40,323 nt of DNA from Candidatus Sumerlaeia bacterium (GTDB lineage: Bacteria > Sumerlaeota > Sumerlaeia > SLMS01). Position 1 is the stretch's first letter. Each line of letters begins with the position of its first letter. The notes beneath the pieces were generated by a model. That model was not told the origin of the DNA and did no database searches. It was given only the letters and a program-made list of their open reading frames with translations. Where the stretch lies: NCBI GenBank assembly GCA_038208905.1, contig JBBQYG010000014.1:1-40323 (forward strand). Direction: 5' to 3'. A program made the translations under genes and the position numbers. Below, in pieces: positions 1,879 to 9,185 of this stretch.

Positions 1879-4374
1879 CTACAGCTCAACCACCGTCACG
1901 CCGCCGCCGCCCTCGTCGGGCGTGGCGAAGCGGTAGCTCTTCACGCTGCGGTTCTGGCGCAGGTATTCGTGCACGGCCTTGTAGAGGCGACCGGTGCCGA
2001 TGCCGTGGTTGATCTTTACGTGGGGAAAGCTGGCGAGGAGGGACCTGTCTATAAAGATATCCAGCTCGGCAACGGCCTCCTCTACGCGGAACCCGTGGAG
2101 GTCCAGCGTCATCGACGTGGGGCGGCTGGGCAGGTTCACGCTGCGGCCGGCGAAGGTCACGCGCGGCGGGCCGGGGGCGATGTTGAGTTCCTGCGCATTG
2201 CGTAGCGCGTGCTTGATTTTGCGGCTGCGCTTCTGGCGGCGCTTGTCGGTGACGCCGTAGAGTTCGATATCCTCTGCCAGAAGGCGCTCTTCCTCGCGGC
2301 GTTCGCGCGGGTTATGGTCGAGCAGGTCCTCGACTTTGACGGCGAGCTCCAACTGCCCGACGCTGACCTTGGCCTGCGCTCCGCCGGCATCGATACGCAC
2401 GATTTCTCCCCACTGACCTAGCGCCGAAACGAAAACGCGCCCGCCCACGCGCAAGTTCCCCGCCCCCACGGCGTGCTCGCCCTTGATAAGCTGGCGCTCG
2501 CTGCCGAAGATCCGCTCCTGGCGCAGCGCCTCCGTGCGCGCCTTCGCCAGCAGTTCCTTGCGGCGGCGCAGTTCGTCCTCGCCGGGAAGGTCGGCGATCA
2601 TGCTCTCCATGCGTTCGCGGATCTCGGCCACGGCCTTCTGGCGCTCCAGGAGCGACGCCTCGCGGAACTCGCGGCGCTCGCGGCGCAGCGAATCCGCCCG
2701 AGCCCGCGCGATCTGCTCCTGCTCGCCGAGCGACTTGGCGCGCGCCTCCGCGTCGCGGACGCTGATGGAGAGGGATCGCTCGCGCTCCTCGATACGGCGC
2801 AGCAGCTCGCCCATCTCCAGGTGGCGCTTGTCCACCATGCTGCGGGCGCGCTCCAGGATCGTGCGCGGCATCCCCTCGCGCTCCGCGATTTCAAGCGCCT
2901 CGCTGGCGCCGGGAATGTCGAGCCGCAGCGTGAACGTCGGTTCCCGGGTTGCGGGATCAAGCGAGAACGACGCATTGCGAACGCCCGGCGTATCCTCCGC
3001 CCAAACCTTCACCGGGTCCAGATGGCTTGTCGTCAGGGTCAGCGCCGCGCGCCCGCGAAAGGCGTCGAGCGTCGCCAGCGCCAGCGGGCTTCCCTCCTGC
3101 GGATCGGTGCCGGTGCCTAGTTCGTCCATGAGGACGAGGCTCCGCGGCGTCGCCTGATCCCACAGCTCGCGAATGCGGCGCACGTGGCCGGAGAATGTGG
3201 AGACACCCTCGCTCAGATCCTGCCGGTCGCCGATGTCGGCGAGCACGTTGCCGAATGCGGGGATCTGGGAATCGGGAAACGCGGGAATCGGCACGCCACA
3301 CTGCGTAAGGAGCGCCAGCAATCCCAGGGCTTTCATCGCCGTCGTCTTGCCGCCGGCATTGGGACCGGAGAACACGATACACCGGTCGTCGCGATCGAGG
3401 AGCATCGTCAGCGGCACGCTTTTTCCGCCGCGCAGGTTCAGCAGCGGGTGATGCGCGTTGAACAGGCGGATCGGGCCCTTCTCCACGACCACCGGCAGGT
3501 GCCACCCGCGATCCACGGCGGTGCGCGCGATGGCGAGGAAGCCGTCCAGCTCGCGAAACACGCGCAGGTTCTCCTGTGCGAAGGGGACGAAAATGCGAAG
3601 CTGCGTCGTCAGGTCGCGCAGGATGCGCAGCACCTCGCGGCGCTCCTCCTCGCGGACGATCTCGATGGCGTTGCCGGCCTCCACGACCTCGCCCGGCTCC
3701 AGATAGTACGTCTCTCCCGTGGCCGACGTGCCGTGCAGGATGCCGCCCACGCGGCTGCGCGCGCCCGCCTTCACCGGAAGCACCGGGCGCCCGTTGCGGA
3801 TGGTAGAGAAACGATCCTGCAACAGGCCGCGCTCGTGGAGTTCCGTGGTCAGCTTCTCGACCAGGCGAAGGAGACGCTGCTCCGACGCGCGCAACTCGCG
3901 GCGCGCGCGCGCAAGGTCCGGCGTCGCGTCGTCGCGGAGTCGGCCGTTGTTGTCGAACATCCGCCCCAGGTTGGTCTCCAGCTCCGGGAACGCCTCCACG
4001 CTGCGGACGGATCGCGCCAGCGCGGGGTACGTCGCGCCCTGCTCCTCGCGAAAGCGCACCAACGCCGATGCGATCGAGAGCTGCGCAAGAACGCTGGGCC
4101 ACGCCTCCTCGTCGAGGACCGAGCCTTCGACGCGGGCCTGCGAGAGGATATCCGACACGTCGTGAAGCCCCCCCAGCGGCAGCGACCCGCCTCGCTCGAC
4201 AAAGAGCATCAGGTCCCGCACCGGCTCATGCCGCGCATGGATCTCGTCGAGGCCATCCAGCGGCTCCAGCGACTGCACCCACTCCCGCCCCAGCGACGAC
4301 AGCGCGGCCCGCGAAACCAGTTCCAGAACGGTATCGTACTCGAGGACTTCGCGTGTCTTGGGATCGATTTGCAT
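1879..4374 (-). CDS. mutS2: MutS2 (ATPase, coiled coil, KOW, Smr), 831 aa
   Basis: LEYDTVLE start, Walker A SGPNAGGKT, ADIGDRQ..STFSGH, LMDELGTGTDP, Smr LDLHG...HGIGTGRL...GGGGVTVVEL. Start moved to the ATG at 4374 (MQIDPK). Confidence 0.95.
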   Translation of the reverse strand: MQIDPKTREVLEYDTVLELVSRAALSSLGREWVQSLEPLDGLDEIHARHEPVRDLMLFVERGGSLPLGGLHDVSDILSQARVEGSVLDEEAWPSVLAQLSIASALVRFREEQGATYPALARSVRSVEAFPELETNLGRMFDNNGRLRDDATPDLARARRELRASEQRLLRLVEKLTTELHERGLLQDRFSTIRNGRPVLPVKAGARSRVGGILHGTSATGETYYLEPGEVVEAGNAIEIVREEERREVLRILRDLTTQLRIFVPFAQENLRVFRELDGFLAIARTAVDRGWHLPVVVEKGPIRLFNAHHPLLNLRGGKSVPLTMLLDRDDRCIVFSGPNAGGKTTAMKALGLLALLTQCGVPIPAFPDSQIPAFGNVLADIGDRQDLSEGVSTFSGHVRRIRELWDQATPRSLVLMDELGTGTDPQEGSPLALATLDAFRGRAALTLTTSHLDPVKVWAEDTPGVRNASFSLDPATREPTFTLRLDIPGASEALEIAEREGMPRTILERARSMVDKRHLEMGELLRRIEERERSLSISVRDAEARAKSLGEQEQIARARADSLRRERREFREASLLERQKAVAEIRERMESMIADLPGEDELRRRKELLAKARTEALRQERIFGSERQLIKGEHAVGAGNLRVGGRVFVSALGQWGEIVRIDAGGAQAKVSVGQLELAVKVEDLLDHNPRERREEERLLAEDIELYGVTDKRRQKRSRKIKHALRNAQELNIAPGPPRVTFAGRSVNLPSRPTSMTLDLHGFRVEEAVAELDIFIDRSLLASFPHVKINHGIGTGRLYKAVHEYLRQNRSVKSYRFATPDEGGGGVTVVEL

Positions 4375-4537
4375 GGCGCGGGAGATGTGCCGCGCCCGCG
4401 CTGGCCCACGCAAGGGGGAAGAACCCGGAATCAGGCGGCGGAACGCTCCACAGCTTTCCGCCCCGAAAAAATCGGGCTTGCGGGTCCTGCCCGTGGTGCC
4501 GTCAATAGACGGCTAGGCAGTAGCCCACACTCCCCCC

Positions 4538-5680
4538 ATGCCCCCAACCCCCAAAAAACTTCTCATCACAGCCGCCATTCTTTCCGCCACCGCGATGGCT
4601 TCCGCCGAACCACTCGCTCCAGGCGAGTGGGCGCCGGAGGTCAGTCTTGGCGGGCATGTTTTTCCCGCGTGGGTTGCGGTGGGAGCGGCGCCGGGGTTTC
4701 CGTCCGCGGAGGCGAAGTCCGATGCGGAGTCCATCGGCGATTCGGGCGCGTGCCTCGCGGTGCTCGTCGCGGCGCCGGGTGCCGGTGCCACTTACTCACT
4801 CGATATTCGCGCGGCGAAGGGGTTGGCGGCCACGACGCTGTCGGGCGTGCTTGATCGCGAGGGGGCGATGTATCGCCTTCAGCCGCGAACCGATCTGAGC
4901 ATTGGCGACCTGGCGCGGCTCGATTCCGCCGAGAAGATCGACGTCACGTTTACGCTCGCGCTCGGCGACGGCGCCCCGATGACCAAGACTTTGGAAGCGA
5001 CGCTTCACGCGCCCGGCGACTGCCCCGTTGCCTTCGATGGCGAGCCACGCCTCGCGTGGACGCTGGCGGCGTTTGCCGACGAGGATTCCCGCGCGGTGGA
5101 TCGACTGGTTTCCGATGCCGAGCGGCTTGGCATCGCGAAGTCGTTCAGCGGCGCTCCCGGCGATTCCGACGAGGCAATCCGGCGTGCCTTCGCGCTGACC
5201 ACTGCGCTCGGGGCCGAAGTGAAAAGTTTCGGGGAGTCCGCCTGGAGCGACGACAACGGCCTCCGCGCCGTCGCCATCCGCTCGCACGAGGACACGCTCT
5301 CGGACTCGGGCGTCACCGTGGCCGATGGCGCGCTGCTGCTTGCCGCCGCGTTCCGCAAGGCAGGACTCAACGCCGTCGTCGCCGTCGATCCCCCGCGGCT
5401 CCATGCGGGCATCCGGCCCGACGATGGCGGGAGCACGCTGCTCTTGGTGGATATCGGAAAACTCGCCTTGGCGGAATTCGACGCTGGCCACTCCGAGCCG
5501 ATGCTGGCCGACCTAGCCACTGCCGACACTACCCTCGCCGCCCGCGTGGAGTGGCCGCGCTTCGCCGCCGCCGCCAACTCCGCCATGAAAGACTATCACG
5601 GCAATTCCACCGAATGGCGCGTGATCGAACTTTCGGCGGCCCGGGAAATGGGCATCAAGCCGCTGGACATAAGGGACTGA
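4538..5680 (+). CDS. Secreted protein, transglutaminase-like fold with degenerate catalytic site
   Basis: Signal peptide (KKLLITAAILSATAMASA). The core TVADGALLLAAAFRKAGLNAVVAVDPPRLH resembles NCxDGxxLxAsxxRkxGxxxxxVxxPGH proteins, and the C-terminus is AREMGIKPL. Confidence 0.6.
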   Translation: MPPTPKKLLITAAILSATAMASAEPLAPGEWAPEVSLGGHVFPAWVAVGAAPGFPSAEAKSDAESIGDSGACLAVLVAAPGAGATYSLDIRAAKGLAATTLSGVLDREGAMYRLQPRTDLSIGDLARLDSAEKIDVTFTLALGDGAPMTKTLEATLHAPGDCPVAFDGEPRLAWTLAAFADEDSRAVDRLVSDAERLGIAKSFSGAPGDSDEAIRRAFALTTALGAEVKSFGESAWSDDNGLRAVAIRSHEDTLSDSGVTVADGALLLAAAFRKAGLNAVVAVDPPRLHAGIRPDDGGSTLLLVDIGKLALAEFDAGHSEPMLADLATADTTLAARVEWPRFAAAANSAMKDYHGNSTEWRVIELSAAREMGIKPLDIRD

Positions 5681-5760
5681 AGGTGGGGGACTTTGTTGAC
5701 CTTATTGACCTTGTGGAAACGATGGATGTTTACAAGGTCAACAAGCTCAATACAGTCAAA
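5665..5760. repeat. Imperfect inverted array of 9-nt units
   Basis: (G/T)GAC at 5688, 5697 and 5706 and GGA at 5715 and 5724; mirrored GTCA/CTCA/GTCA at 5737, 5746 and 5755. Lies between convergent genes. Confidence 0.7.
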
Positions 5761-5817
5761 ATAGCCTTTAAATCATGTCCACAAGCTCAAGGCTCTCGTT
5801 CCCGCGTTGTGGGCACC

Positions 5818-7383
5818 CTACACGGGATCTTTCATCTTATCGCCCAGCGCGCGCTTCAGGTCGCGGGCGGGAATGGCGCCCTCGCGGAGCAATTCATAGG
5901 GCTCCGTGATGACGCTGATCACGCTGGAGGCCTTGCCGCTGCGGCAGGGGCCTGCGTCCAGAAGGCATTCGATCTTCCCCTCGTAGCGTTCCAGCACCTG
6001 CTTGCCATCGGTGGCGGGTTGCTGGTTGGGGACGGCCGCGTTGATAACGGCAAGGGGCTTCTGAACCATCGCCATCAATCGCAGTGCGATGGGATCGTCG
6101 GGGATGCGGATCGCGATGCTGGGCGACTCGGTCACCGACGCCAGCACATTGGGATGCTTGGCGAAAATTACTGTCAGGCCGCCCGGCCAATAGACGTCGA
6201 GCACTGATTCAATTGGCGGTGGCACTTCCTTGACAAGGCCGTCCAGTGCTCCGCCGTCGTGGATGAGGATCGAGAGGCTCTTGGACGACGCGGTTGCGCC
6301 CTTCACTTCATAGAGCCGCCTCACCGCATCGGCATTGGTCGCATCCACCGCAAGGCCATACACGGTGTCGGTGGGGAAGGCGACGATGCCACCCTCCAGC
6401 AGCACCATCATCGCGTGGCTCAGCACATCCTCGTCGGGCTCGGCGCGGTCCACCTGGAACACCTTAGTCTCGACCGAGGCGAGCGCCTTGTCGAATTCCG
6501 CCGCCATCGGCCTGCGCCCGGGCTCGACGGAGTGAAGGAACTCCGCCACCACGTCGCGGGCGCTGCGGGGCGTGGGGGTGGCGATGCGCGGCTTCATGAA
6601 CATCGCCGGGGCCAGATCCTCGTCCGATGGCGGGGCGGGATAGGGCCTGGGTCGCGGCACCACAAGGGTGGGTGTCTCGGCGTCCAGCGCCGGATCGCCG
6701 GTGGGGGTGCCGGGTTCCTGGGGGCGGGGCGTGGGGACCAGCTTGCTGTTGCCGACGACGCGGGCTCCGGGGCGGATCACGCCGCTGTCGCCGTTGCGCG
6801 CTCCCGGATCGGAGCCCGGGTCGGTGTCCTCTTCCTCGCGGCCGCGGGGCGCGCTGGCACCGGTCGTCCGGGCGGGATCGCACAGATCGGGAAACTCGCC
6901 GACCAGCTCCTTGCCCGTGGCATCAAGCCTCTGCGCCGCCGCCGCGCGCGTGTGGGCAAGCACTTCGCGAAACGCGGGGTACTTGATCGCAAGGATCTGG
7001 GCCACCAAAAAGGCCGCATTCTCGGAATTGTTGATTCCCACGGTCGCCACCGGCGTCCCAAGGGGCTGCTGCACCAGCGTATAGAGGGCGTCCTGCCCCC
7101 GCAGCGGGGTCGAGTCGATGGGCACCGCGATCACGGGGACCAGCGTGTGACAGGCTACCGCGCCGGCGAGCTGGGCCGAGCCCCCCGCGCCGCAGATGAT
7201 CGCCTCGATGCCATTGTCCGATGCCTTGCGGGCCCATTGCGCCAACCGGTCCGGCGTCCGGTGGGCGGAAAGAAATTCGAGCGCATAGGGAACCCCCATC
7301 ATCCTGAGGGACTCCAGTCCCCGCCGCATCACATTGAAGTCCGCGCGGGAGCCCAGAATTACGCCAACCAACGCCTTCGCCAT
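5818..7383 (-). CDS. PurE-like domain fused via a Pro-rich linker to a degenerate TsaC/YrdC (Sua5-family) domain, 521 aa
   Basis: N-terminus: VGVILGSRAD, SAHRTP, GAGGSAQLAG, PVIAVP, PVATVGINN (PurE). C-terminus: GGIVAFPTDTVYGL, YWPGGLTVI, IAIRIPD, LLDAG, LLREGAIP (YrdC). One frame with no internal stop; start moved to the ATG at 7383. Confidence 0.88.
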   Translation of the reverse strand: MAKALVGVILGSRADFNVMRRGLESLRMMGVPYALEFLSAHRTPDRLAQWARKASDNGIEAIICGAGGSAQLAGAVACHTLVPVIAVPIDSTPLRGQDALYTLVQQPLGTPVATVGINNSENAAFLVAQILAIKYPAFREVLAHTRAAAAQRLDATGKELVGEFPDLCDPARTTGASAPRGREEEDTDPGSDPGARNGDSGVIRPGARVVGNSKLVPTPRPQEPGTPTGDPALDAETPTLVVPRPRPYPAPPSDEDLAPAMFMKPRIATPTPRSARDVVAEFLHSVEPGRRPMAAEFDKALASVETKVFQVDRAEPDEDVLSHAMMVLLEGGIVAFPTDTVYGLAVDATNADAVRRLYEVKGATASSKSLSILIHDGGALDGLVKEVPPPIESVLDVYWPGGLTVIFAKHPNVLASVTESPSIAIRIPDDPIALRLMAMVQKPLAVINAAVPNQQPATDGKQVLERYEGKIECLLDAGPCRSGKASSVISVITEPYELLREGAIPARDLKRALGDKMKDPV

Positions 7384-7631
7384 CTTGTCACCGGCCCATG
7401 GGGTCTCGGCGATATTAGGTTCCCGGTCGGGGCCGCCGGTAAACGGGAAACTCGCCTGCGGCGCTCTTTTCCATCGGGCCAGCCTATCGCGGCGCGATCC
7501 TCGCTGGTCGAATCCGGTGGTGATTGGGTTGCCTGCGCTTGACAGCGAGGAGGGCGCCCCATTCCCATCCACCACTTGGCGATCCCCACTTCGGGGCGCC
7601 AAGGCTCCATCGAACCCATCGAGGCATGTGC

Positions 7632-9185
7632 ATGAACATCTGGAAGAAGGCCACCGGTTCCGACCGATTCCTGCTGGGCGGCGCGATTCTCTGCCTGGCG
7701 CTGTCGCTGATGCTGCTGGGCGTGAAGGGCAGCCAACTGCGCGCCGCCGAGGCGGCGGACGATCAGGAGTTCCTCCGCTTCGTCGATGTCGCCGCGGAAA
7801 TCTACAACGACGTCCGCGGCAAGTACGTTGACGAAGTGAAGGGCCGCGACGTGCTGGAGGGTGCCCTCGCCGGCATGTTCTCCCGCCTTGACGAGCATAG
7901 CCAGTACATGGACCCGTCCATGCTCGACGGCCTGAACAAGGACACCGGCGGCCAGTTCAGCGGCATCGGCATCCACATCACCATGCGTCAGGGCCTCCTC
8001 ACCGTGATCGCGCCGATCCCCGGCTCGCCATCGGCCAAGATCGGCCTCGCGCCGTGGGACCGCATTGTCGAGATCGAAGGCAAGACCACCGAGGGCATGA
8101 CCCTCCAGCAGGCCGTGGAGAAACTCACCGGCCCCACCGGCACCCAGGTTACCATCAAGATTTTCCGCGAGGGCGAGGCAGAGCCCCTCGAATTCGCCAT
8201 CACCCGCGCCAGCATCAAGATCAACAGCGTCTATTACAAGATGCACGACGCCGAGGCCGGGATCGGATACCTACGCATCGCCCGCTTCAGCGAGAACACC
8301 GCCGCCGACATGCGCAAGGGCCTGCTGGACCTGCGCTCCCAAGGCATGAAGGGCCTGATGCTGGACCTGCGCTACAACTCCGGCGGCCTGCTCCGCGAGG
8401 CGATCGAGGTCTCGAACCTCTTCACCCCCAAGCACGCCATCATTGTCTCCACCAAGGGCCGCCTCCGCAGCCAGAACCAGGAATACCGCGCGACCGAGGA
8501 GCCTCTGATTCAGGGCATCCCCGTGTTCGTCCTCGTCAACGAGGGCTCTGCCTCCGCCTCCGAGATCGTCGCTGGCGCGCTCCAGGATCTGCACCTCGGC
8601 GTCGTCATCGGACCCAAGGGGAAGAACACCTTCGGCAAGGGCTCCGTCCAGACGATCGAGTCGCTGCGCAACACGATGTACGACGACGAGGACGGAAACC
8701 CGAAGGAGAGCGCCATCCGCCTGACCACGGCGCGCTACTACACGCCCTCGGGACGCACGATCCATCACGTCGGCGTCACGCCGGATATTGGCGTGCCGGT
8801 CACCCGCCAGTCCGAGCGCGACCTCCTGCGCAGCGGGCTCTATGGCGACACGACGATTCCCCTCACCGTTGAGGAGCAGAAGGCCGAGGAAGAGGCCGAG
8901 CGCCGCGCCACCGCCCCGGAGGAAGTTGACGGAACCATCGAAGTCCACACCCCCCAGGCCACCCCGGCGGAGGAAGCACCCGCGCCCGATGTGAACGCAT
9001 CCGGCGACCCCTTCTATACCAAGGCCAAGCGTCCCGAACTCGCCGAAACGGGCGAATTCCTGGATGTCCTCCTGGACGAAGCCACCAAGCAGATGAAGAT
9101 CTACATGATCCTCGACGGCGCCCGCGGCGGCACGCCGACCGTTGCCTCCGCCGAGTCCGAGCCGGCCACCAGCGTCGCCAAGTAG
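7632..9185 (+). CDS. S41A carboxyl-terminal processing protease (CtpA/Prc family) with PDZ domain, 517 aa
   Basis: N-terminal TM, LDEHSQY, FSGIGI, LDLRYNSGG, SASASEIVAGALQD (catalytic Ser), TFGKGSVQ (catalytic Lys), LTTARYYTPSG. GAGG lies 7 nt before the ATG at 7632. Confidence 0.95.
   Translation: MNIWKKATGSDRFLLGGAILCLALSLMLLGVKGSQLRAAEAADDQEFLRFVDVAAEIYNDVRGKYVDEVKGRDVLEGALAGMFSRLDEHSQYMDPSMLDGLNKDTGGQFSGIGIHITMRQGLLTVIAPIPGSPSAKIGLAPWDRIVEIEGKTTEGMTLQQAVEKLTGPTGTQVTIKIFREGEAEPLEFAITRASIKINSVYYKMHDAEAGIGYLRIARFSENTAADMRKGLLDLRSQGMKGLMLDLRYNSGGLLREAIEVSNLFTPKHAIIVSTKGRLRSQNQEYRATEEPLIQGIPVFVLVNEGSASASEIVAGALQDLHLGVVIGPKGKNTFGKGSVQTIESLRNTMYDDEDGNPKESAIRLTTARYYTPSGRTIHHVGVTPDIGVPVTRQSERDLLRSGLYGDTTIPLTVEEQKAEEEAERRATAPEEVDGTIEVHTPQATPAEEAPAPDVNASGDPFYTKAKRPELAETGEFLDVLLDEATKQMKIYMILDGARGGTPTVASAESEPATSVAK

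Follow-up and report, generated by a model that had tools for sequence, protein, structure and literature searches.

A 40,323-nucleotide window of Candidatus Sumerlaeia DNA (contig JBBQYG010000014.1, assembly GCA_038208905.1) carries a gene in which a PurE-like domain is joined, through a long acidic and proline-rich linker, to a YrdC-like domain of the TsaC type. Based on the residue, structural, phylogenetic and selection evidence presented here, we consider that the encoded protein is probably a pseudoenzyme kept by selection for a non-catalytic job, serving as a threonine-binding oligomeric scaffold. It descends from a PurE-TsaC fusion that is ancestral and, to judge by its residues, catalytically complete elsewhere in the phylum; in the order of the window, this fusion lengthened its linker and gained conserved short motifs.

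The initial annotation had recognized one open reading frame (ORF) that runs from a PurE domain through a linker rich in Pro and Thr to a YrdC domain. Translation and Pfam confirm this architecture, with AIRC (PF00731) at residues 6-150 (163.3 bits) and Sua5_yciO_yrdC (PF01300) at residues 327-502 (142.6 bits; Table 1); every string that it quoted is found in the translation, whether from the PurE half (GSRAD, SAHRTP, AGGSAQLAG, VQQPLG), the YrdC half (PTDTVYGL, KGATASSKSL, AVINAA) or the linker (EEDTDPG, VPTPRPQEPGTPTG, ETPT, ATPTPRS). The ATG at 7383 agrees with the N-termini of relatives (M in column 1 of 59 of 113 aligned proteins), and a TTG at 7602 is an alternative, longer start. The fusion also exceeds the cut-offs of two NCBIfam equivalog models, TIGR00057 for threonylcarbamoyl-AMP (TC-AMP) synthase (154.2 bits against 123.2) and, marginally, the purE equivalog-domain TIGR01162 (155.8 bits against 149.6). 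Because both models pass, annotation pipelines give the protein two enzyme functions; it very likely lacks at least one of them. Tetrad-lost members of the family (e.g. P0010, P0024, P0036, P0011, P0025) are publicly named 'threonylcarbamoyl-AMP synthase' or '5-(carboxyamino)imidazole ribonucleotide mutase', and such names probably over-propagate function.

ATP site and threonine pocket of the YrdC-like domain

In the TsaC/Sua5 family, the KRSN tetrad counts as the hallmark of catalysis (PMC6004061, PMC10321239, PMC4615747); it is described as essential to ATP binding and activity (PMC6004061) and serves as a filter for true orthologues (PMC10321239). As described for P. abyssi Sua5 (PMC6004061), L-threonine is contacted by T35, H67, R121, S181 and R195, bicarbonate is held by R195 and the backbone of S143, and pyrophosphate or ATP is contacted by K56, R58, N62, S147 and G148 together with the tetrad K56-x-R58/S143-x-N145. 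We aligned the fusion with the solved chains of T. maritima TsaC2 (9d3h), P. abyssi Sua5 (6f87/6f89) and S. tokodaii Sua5 (2eqa). The five threonine contacts correspond to T340, L373, R426, S486 and R500, and K56, R58, N62, S147, G148, S143 and N145 correspond to K361, A363, S367, P452, N453, N448 and A450, respectively. The loss of the tetrad, already suspected from the bare sequence, is borne out: K-G-A stands against K-x-R and N-A-A against S-A-N, so that the tetrad reads K361, A363, N448, A450. The ATP/pyrophosphate contacts equivalent to R58, S143, N145, S147 and G148 are thus lost, reading A, N, A, P and N, and only the equivalent of K56 remains.

Residue counts for the order refer to the 21 genomes whose degenerate copies were fetched; the H67 and N62 positions were left out, as they are not conserved even in active TsaC-type fusions. 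The threonine-site residues T340, R426, S486 and R500 are conserved in 21/21 genomes. Position 361 is K in 17 of them and position 363 is R in three; position 448 is N in all 21 and S in none, position 450 is never N (A in 10, S in 9, T in 2), and positions 363, 450, 452 and 453 vary freely within this clade. K, R, S and N stand in every one of the 17 fusion-type rows with an intact tetrad (8 are fused and 4 three-part, contig ends cut 3, and 2 lie in separate short frames) and in all 20 Sua5 rows. The alignment of 113 metagenomic family proteins, which comprises 111 with both Pfam domains, one N-terminally truncated relative and the fusion itself (P0001), has the tetrad intact in 49, altered in 63 and truncated in 1; the threonine site T-R-S-R is found in 110 and K368 in 101.

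Both HypF rows retain K, R, S and N and have G, M/L and D at the positions of T35, R121 and S181; these three threonine-site residues are thus not required by the fold. The degenerate domain reads as the mirror image of HypF, its amino-acid pocket retained and its nucleotide-phosphate site lost. As all 21 genomes keep the threonine contacts and the ATP contacts are gone, L-threonine is the ligand most likely still bound. An RNA-binding role, which the initial annotation had also considered, was dropped: the domain is acidic, with a median net charge of -8 over the 21 degenerate copies, unlike the basic patch of YciO.

The AlphaFold2 (AF2) model of the fusion (93-row alignment; mean predicted local distance difference test, pLDDT, 85.2; predicted template-modelling score, pTM, 0.51) has ten-residue block means of pLDDT of 94-98 in the PurE-like domain and 86-98 in the YrdC-like domain (301-520); in the linker they are 42-58 over most of 181-300, with 68 at 251-260. 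The confident domains, the low pLDDT of the linker and the pTM together indicate two folds on a disordered tether. Foldseek matches the YrdC-like domain to T. maritima TsaC2 (9dsv; E 1.6e-22, root-mean-square deviation 1.6 A, 34% identity) and the PurE-like domain to 1o4v (E 6e-16, TM-score 0.88 normalised to the target; sequence match E 3e-39).

Integrity, distribution and descent of the fusion

The fusion is a real, single, selected gene, neither artefact nor relic. Five public DNA runs contain at least half of its sampled words, the DNA occurring in freshwater, sediment or mat habitats, and four were compared over positions 5700-7700. A 4705-nt contig of an independent metagenome run (X1) covers this interval with 12 substitutions and 0 gaps, contigs of another run (X2) match the linker with 0 differences, and no insertion or deletion is listed over the interval in any of the four runs. 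Eight in-gene variants are listed, of which seven are synonymous third-position changes and one is A294T in the linker. The possibility, raised at the outset, of a stop or frameshift hidden in the linker is thereby answered, the independent contigs giving 0 indels.

The initial annotation had recommended a search of the genome for separate canonical enzymes; both are present. Scanning the whole genome (4.24 Mb, 94% complete) with both Pfam models gave a second PF01300 match of 200 bits on contig C82, a 322-aa Sua5 with the tetrad intact (KGRPSHNPL, PSANASN), and a second AIRC match of 219 bits on contig C43, a canonical PurE with GSESDW, SAHRTP, AGGAAHLPGM and VQMPAG. The latter is followed by an ATP-grasp ORF that we take, from its position and sequence, to be PurK. 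The fusion is thus a paralogue of both PurE and Sua5, and the TC-AMP synthase role of the genome belongs to the separate Sua5 rather than to the fusion. A third, weak AIRC match (55 bits) lies at the start of another contig (L005, G000:C234) and is LarB-like by the weak NCBIfam match to the fusion; the two small ORFs after this fragment may be EutN/CcmL-type microcompartment vertex proteins (L005 coordinates of the three: 2-349, 368-658, 595-930).

The architecture is spread over the phylum Sumerlaeota. A search of a 5.8-billion-protein collection gave 212 proteins, and among the 120 listed, 111 besides the window's own have both Pfam domains (349-653 aa), with taxon names that are all Candidatus Sumerlaeota/Sumerlaeia, save 'bacterium' and 'soil metagenome'. 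A single exact peptide pattern run over wider genomes returned both domains in 4 of 80 loci among the matches listed, and these four are all titled Sumerlaeota or Sumerlaeia, a non-exhaustive probe of whether the architecture is limited to the phylum. We surveyed the phylum with both Pfam models in 75 genomes, merging matches by contig and frame; the genomes behind the phyletic pattern are metagenome-assembled genomes (MAGs), 58-98% complete.

In the order of the window (f1-f4, 25 genomes), 22 genomes have the fusion in one frame, with lowered scores (YrdC 138-161 bits, AIRC 135-182 bits) and a gap of 481-745 nt between the domain matches. The three others are a 75%-complete genome, one with a fragment only and one with the halves on two contigs. 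Standalone PurE is present in 25/25 genomes (188-219 bits) and a standalone Sua5-like match in 23/25 (177-211 bits). Elsewhere in the phylum, 18 genomes (f10 in part, f12, f13, f14, f16) have a fusion in which each domain scores 165 bits or more, and no second AIRC match in them reaches 72 bits. Their other YrdC matches were classed as HypF-like on score and on the length of their frames (about 770-850 aa), the exceptions being one 32-bit fragment and one unexamined 135-bit match; three YrdC matches in shorter frames of other genomes (L025, L026, L029) read as HypF. These 18 genomes appear to have neither a PurE nor a TsaC besides the fusion, and the five fusions fetched from this group have the KRSN tetrad intact. 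A further seven genomes (f7, f8, f11) combine a strong YrdC half (167-182 bits) with a weak AIRC half (72-117 bits) and have a standalone PurE.

Two observations concern single loci of these groups. In one f13 genome (G025:C49:8341-9658) the AIRC and YrdC matches lie in different frames (272 and 348 aa), and its two congeners have a single 496-aa frame; the difference reflects either an error (frameshift or assembly) or a genuine separation of the halves. Two f11 genomes (G015:C107:273-797 and G013:C54:28240-28767; L077, L078) have an extra short YrdC gene without the R and N of the tetrad, which branches outside the TsaC-type and Sua5-type domains and may be YciO-like.

The f15 genomes have three-part proteins of 599-697 aa, made of an AIRC-less N-terminal region, a Clp_N-like middle and a YrdC domain (Table 1). 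Only L027 and L022 were scanned by Pfam for Clp_N, which scored 31 bits in the former and gave no match in the latter. Metagenomic P0074 and P0112 have an f15-like three-part layout with an intact PurE. When an f15 protein was compared with P0074 by BLASTP, only the Clp_N-like and YrdC parts aligned, and Pfam gave no AIRC; a PurE origin of the f15 N-terminal part is therefore suggested by position only. Where the f15 tetrad is intact (full proteins of G054 and G066, YrdC segment of G055 and G056), there is no other non-HypF YrdC match; the genomes in which it is lost (G057, G060, G063, G065) carry a standalone Sua5 (192-217 bits). Over the phylum, tetrad loss is confined to lineages with a standalone Sua5-clade gene (24 of 25 degenerate copies examined, the exception being in an 80%-complete genome). 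As kin are not independent, the pattern should be counted as some two independent events rather than 25.

A tree of 66 YrdC domains (IQ-TREE quick search, LG+C20), built without a bona fide YciO reference, places the 21 degenerate copies of the order in one clade (SH-like approximate likelihood ratio test, SH-aLRT, 99). This clade lies within a fusion-type clade of 42 rows (81), beside the active f12, f13 and f16 fusions (89). The Sua5-type domains (n=20) form a separate clade (97), and the f15 three-part proteins, degenerate and active, cluster together (87). From this topology, the phylum has two distinct paralogues, Sua5 and the C-domain of the fusion, and the tetrad was lost at least twice. 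The initial annotation had wondered whether relatives have the two genes apart. Only one genome, from another class (G074:C111, L028), does so, with purE at about 1573-2013 and a sua5 of 316 aa at 2195-2719 (contig coordinates) on the same strand, 182 nt apart; its YrdC domain falls in the Sua5 clade, and this adjacency was rejected as the pre-fusion gene order. As the G074 Sua5 is outside the lineage of the fusion, the phylum has brought purE together with a gene for TC-AMP synthase more than once.

Selection was estimated by the Nei-Gojobori method in four same-genus genome pairs of the order. The degenerate YrdC-like domain (identity 0.91, 0.86, 0.78, 0.85; nonsynonymous divergence, dN, 0.052, 0.120, 0.156, 0.110) evolves more slowly than the genuine Sua5 catalytic domain of the same pairs (identity 0.78, 0.68, 0.76, 0.80; dN 0.150, 0.321, 0.191, 0.127) in 4/4 cases. 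The identity of the PurE-like domain is 0.80, 0.86, 0.72 and 0.91. The ratio of dN to synonymous divergence (dS) is 0.05-0.16 for the YrdC-like domain (three of four pairs computable), 0.03-0.25 for the PurE-like domain (four of four), 0.28-0.35 for the linker (two of four computable) and 0.05-0.15 for standalone PurE; these ratios are rough.

PurE-like domain, linker and competing explanations

The PurE-like domain retains GSRAD and SAHRTP; as noted from the sequence alone, Q71 replaces the 70s-loop His of AAHLPG and VQQP stands in place of VQMP. In the order, the 40s-loop His is H in 13/21 genomes and lost in 8/21 (H41 in the fusion), and the 70s-loop His is H in 0/21. R42, which follows the catalytic His, is conserved in 18/21 and D15 in 17/21; G96 and D98 are conserved in 21/21, and GQDAL is kept in the fusion. 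For the roles of the two loop His residues, R42, D15, G96 and D98, we assume those of the E. coli and A. aceti PurE literature. Given the His counts, mutase activity is not a conserved property of the clade; in the copy studied here, which has H41, some mutase activity may be retained.

A PurE octamer had been proposed as a core that displays the YrdC domains. Its N-domain part can be modelled: four copies of residues 1-172, run three times, score 0.87 (0.86-0.88) against 0.01 for the best control, with contact agreement of at least 88% and partner pLDDT of at least 89; the score mark used is reached by 20/30 solved one-chain pairs and 1/23 single chains. Solved PurE octamers may explain this pass, and since such octamers are solved, the model speaks for likeness to them and is not proof of assembly by this copy.

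The aligned linker stretch of the fusion (about residue 143 to 329) contains 14% P, 17% D+E and 12% K+R. Across the order the linker is variable in length, with 11-17% Pro and more acidic than basic residues, and it contains the conserved islands EYPDLC, D-T-DPG, E..TP, IRPGA and LVxTPxPQEP. IRPGA, LVxTPxPQEP and the other linker motifs of the order are absent from the active fusions read. In the 113-protein alignment the median linker length is 154 aa in tetrad-altered and 62 aa in tetrad-intact proteins. Its Thr-Pro sites as kinase targets, a further proposal of the initial annotation, are an unsupported suggestion. A motif shared with a partner protein was sought in the six-frame open frames of at least 100 aa of the genome and rejected as a lead: TPxPQEP, the most specific motif, is unique to the fusion, while IRPGA (9 occurrences, 8 outside the fusion) and EYPDL-like strings (8) repeat mostly in frames of unchecked gene status and are uninformative.

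If the fusion is the non-catalytic scaffold that we favour, the protein would no longer make TC-AMP; a PurE-type oligomer would form the core, from which flexible acidic linkers would tether several domains able to bind L-threonine or N-carboxy-threonine without adenylating it, and IRPGA and LVxTPxPQEP would be docking sites for a partner. A more specific version is tentative: the fusion may be a pseudoenzyme regulator, in which a PurE hub carries TsaC-derived sensors of threonine or of N-carboxy-threonine/CO2 that do not use ATP, and in which an effector recruited by the linker couples amino-acid and purine status to an output, the system having evolved twice once Sua5 was present. The PurE-like pockets might then still bind an aminoimidazole ribonucleotide.

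Several points weigh against the non-catalytic scaffold. The threonine-site residues could be conserved for reasons besides ligand binding, and the HypF contrast consists of two sequences. K361 (17/21) and the invariant N448 could be parts of an active site that has been remodelled and is not dead. The fusion passes the purE equivalog cut-off and keeps its 40s-loop His, and may be a working second PurE. The tree is from a quick method, and the nesting of the degenerate clade among active fusions has an SH-aLRT of only 81-89. Because dS is near or beyond saturation (about 1), dN/dS is rough and the comparison leans on dN and identity. The sole-copy calls in other families depend on MAGs 58-96% complete. 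No partner is indicated, since TPxPQEP is absent elsewhere in the genome and IRPGA is found in unchecked frames; docking of the linker motifs on either domain was likewise rejected, AF2 leaving them at pLDDT 42-58. Finally, tblastn of the window ORFs (first 18 kb) found the window neighbours beside the fusion in 0/16 order loci.

Four other explanations have to be considered. It is rather unlikely that the fusion is a neofunctionalised enzyme that joins PurE-type CO2 transfer to the threonine/bicarbonate pocket in a reaction that needs no ATP, its substrate being a carbamate or a carboxylated compound such as N-carboxy-threonine or a carboxyaminoimidazole-like nucleotide. Both parent enzymes, PurE and TsaC, handle carbamates: the substrate of class I PurE, N5-carboxyaminoimidazole ribonucleotide (N5-CAIR), is one, and N-carboxy-L-threonine is bound in the TsaC2 structures 9dsv and 9d3h. 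N448 is strictly conserved, and both pockets keep ligand-contact residues (with the PurE roles assumed above) where the catalytic and ATP residues are gone. Such an enzyme is at odds with the loss of the 40s-loop His in 8/21 and of the 70s-loop His in 21/21 genomes, with the absence of a fixed interdomain contact in the AF2 model, where the linker is disordered, and with the lack of a conserved metabolic gene neighbourhood.

We also think it unlikely that the protein acts chiefly as an additional, working N5-CAIR mutase, with the C-domain as inert baggage or as a solubility or localisation tag. In 2/4 pairs, identity shows the YrdC-like domain to be under no less constraint than the PurE-like one, the catalytic His is present in only 13/21 genomes of the clade, and the genome has a canonical purE-purK pair; these facts stand against the TIGR01162 score and the retained GSRAD, SAHRTP and GQDAL. 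Also in its favour, A. aceti PurE mutants of the 70s-loop His reportedly keep part of their activity; structures of such mutants (2fwa, 2fwb, 2fw8) are in the PDB.

That the fusion is still a TC-AMP synthase, its remodelled ATP site (K361, K368, N448) compensating for the lost residues and giving the organism two TsaC isozymes, seems quite improbable. The strong purifying selection on the domain, the intact threonine/bicarbonate pocket, K361 in 17/21 genomes and K368 in 101/113 proteins and the TIGR00057 score are all compatible with it, and E. coli YciO is reported to give traces of TC-AMP in vitro (bioRxiv 10.1101/2024.07.01.601547). However, the tetrad is held to be essential to ATP binding and activity (PMC6004061) and to mark true orthologues (PMC10321239); positions 363, 450, 452 and 453 are free to vary, which is unexpected of a compensating site; and tetrad loss has arisen twice, only alongside a standalone Sua5-clade gene (24/25). 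Lastly, a decaying relic or an assembly or frameshift artefact joining two genes would suit the degenerate motifs and the absence of any RNA run among the public runs listed as containing the gene stretch, but hardly any credence is left to it by the intact frame in 22/25 order genomes, the independent contig with 0 indels, the seven synonymous variants of eight and a dN below that of the genuine Sua5 domain in 4/4 pairs.

Gene neighbourhood, known systems and significance

The clustering of genes around the fusion in the order loci gives no pathway signal. Six f3 loci have a lipB-like octanoyltransferase gene directly after the fusion on the same strand (Pfam-checked in L015), and in six it is preceded by a small Pfam-less protein and, farther out, by a BrkB/YihY-like membrane protein (confirmed by Pfam in L018). 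These two sets (among L013-L018 and L020) overlap and are not identical, and this gene order is absent from f1. Beside the fusion in three f1 loci is an ORF that, from reading its sequence, we take to be GyrB-like.

Table 1. Coordinates of the fusion gene, its parts and neighbours (window positions), and of the f15 three-part proteins (listed by locus)
Feature	Position	Strand	Evidence or remark
Whole PurE-linker-YrdC gene, 521 aa + stop	5818..7383	-	stop-free translation, Pfam, NCBIfam
PurE-like domain, residues 1-165 (Pfam AIRC core 6934-7368)	6889..7383	-	Pfam, NCBIfam, AF2, Foldseek
Acidic, Pro-rich linker (predicted disordered), about residues 166-304	6472..6888	-	pLDDT, composition
Linker motif IRPGA, residues 203-207	6763..6777	-	each consensus letter in at least 17/21 order genomes
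Linker motif LVPTPRPQEP, residues 215-224 (consensus LVxTPxPQEP)	6712..6741	-	consensus letters in at least 17/21 genomes
YrdC-like (TsaC-type) domain, residues 305-521 (Pfam core 5878-6405)	5821..6471	-	Pfam, AF2, Foldseek
Degenerate KxR motif K361-G362-A363	6295..6303	-	aligned with K56-G-R58 of P. abyssi Sua5
Degenerate SxN motif N448-A449-A450	6034..6042	-	aligned with S143-A-N145 of P. abyssi Sua5
MutS2 (MutS_V + Smr)	1879-4413	-	window neighbour
Convergent 380-aa protein without Pfam match	4538-5680	+	window neighbour
Divergent CtpA/CtpB-like S41 peptidase with PDZ domain	7632-9185	+	window neighbour
f15 three-part locus L027	2057-3997	-	
f15 three-part locus L031	595-2538	+	
f15 three-part locus L022	1132-2973	+	
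f15 three-part locus L023	1906-3843	-	
f15 three-part locus L024	2016-4109	-	
f15 three-part locus L030	784-2583	+	

The initial annotation knew of no characterised PurE-YrdC fusion, and our literature search likewise found no published description; 'PurE' occurs 0 times in PMC10321239 and PMC4615747. With TsaC and TsaC2 (Sua5), the fusion domain shares its fold, identical threonine/bicarbonate contacts and a TsaC-type ancestry; it differs in having the tetrad cut to K, the equivalents of S147 and G148 lost and no SUA5 domain, and in sitting behind a PurE-like domain in a genome that has a genuine Sua5 elsewhere. The PurE-like half resembles class I PurE (N5-CAIR mutase) in fold, sequence and the 40s-loop SAHR, and a PurE-type oligomer can be modelled for it, whereas it has Q for the 70s-loop His and VQQP for VQMP, is not beside purK and has the catalytic His in 13/21 genomes.

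As in YciO, a YrdC-fold paralogue exists alongside a true TC-AMP synthase without replacing it. YciO is a TsaC paralogue of unassigned role; an older review gives it as lacking the KRSN tetrad (PMC4615747), and a more recent preprint describes it as standing alone, being about 200 aa long, bearing a conserved basic patch and having a largely conserved active site (bioRxiv 10.1101/2024.07.01.601547). The sequence similarity network tables of that preprint would miss the fusion architecture, because they are limited to proteins of 150-350 aa. The fusion domain, in contrast, is acidic (median of the 21 copies) and fused; it branches in the fusion-type TsaC clade, in a tree without a bona fide YciO, and apart from the two tetrad-less 'other' rows. 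In a phmmer search with this domain, YciO structures were matched at E about 1e-9 and TsaC2 at 1e-34. The fusion is probably a TsaC-derived pseudoenzyme, analogous to yet distinct from YciO.

HypF and TobZ also contain a YrdC-like domain as one module of a multidomain protein, but HypF is the opposite of the fusion, since it keeps K-x-R and S-x-N and is without three of the four threonine contacts. The partner of the YrdC domain in HypF is given as a Kae1-like, not a PurE-like, domain (PMC10321239, PMC4615747). The general features of the case are those of pseudoenzymes that act as regulators or scaffolds. In such proteins, catalytic residues are lost, pocket and fold are kept, purifying selection is strong, and an active paralogue is present in the genome. 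What is particular to the fusion is its double-domain, bifunctional origin and the repeated loss within one phylum.

The Sumerlaeota thus present a graded series, from a sole-copy fusion with the tetrad intact (in those fetched), through a fusion with a decayed PurE half, to a fusion with both halves freed from catalysis. Two independent losses of the ATP site, together with a degenerate domain more constrained than its living paralogue, make this a clean system for the passage from enzyme to non-catalytic protein; the value of the case lies in this natural series and in the unusually strong constraint on the degenerate domain. For the biology of N6-threonylcarbamoyladenosine (t6A), the phylum offers a set of lineages in which a PurE-fused TsaC is the apparent only TC-AMP synthase and, in the order of the window, a threonine-pocket-only YrdC domain whose ligand and partner are now directly testable.

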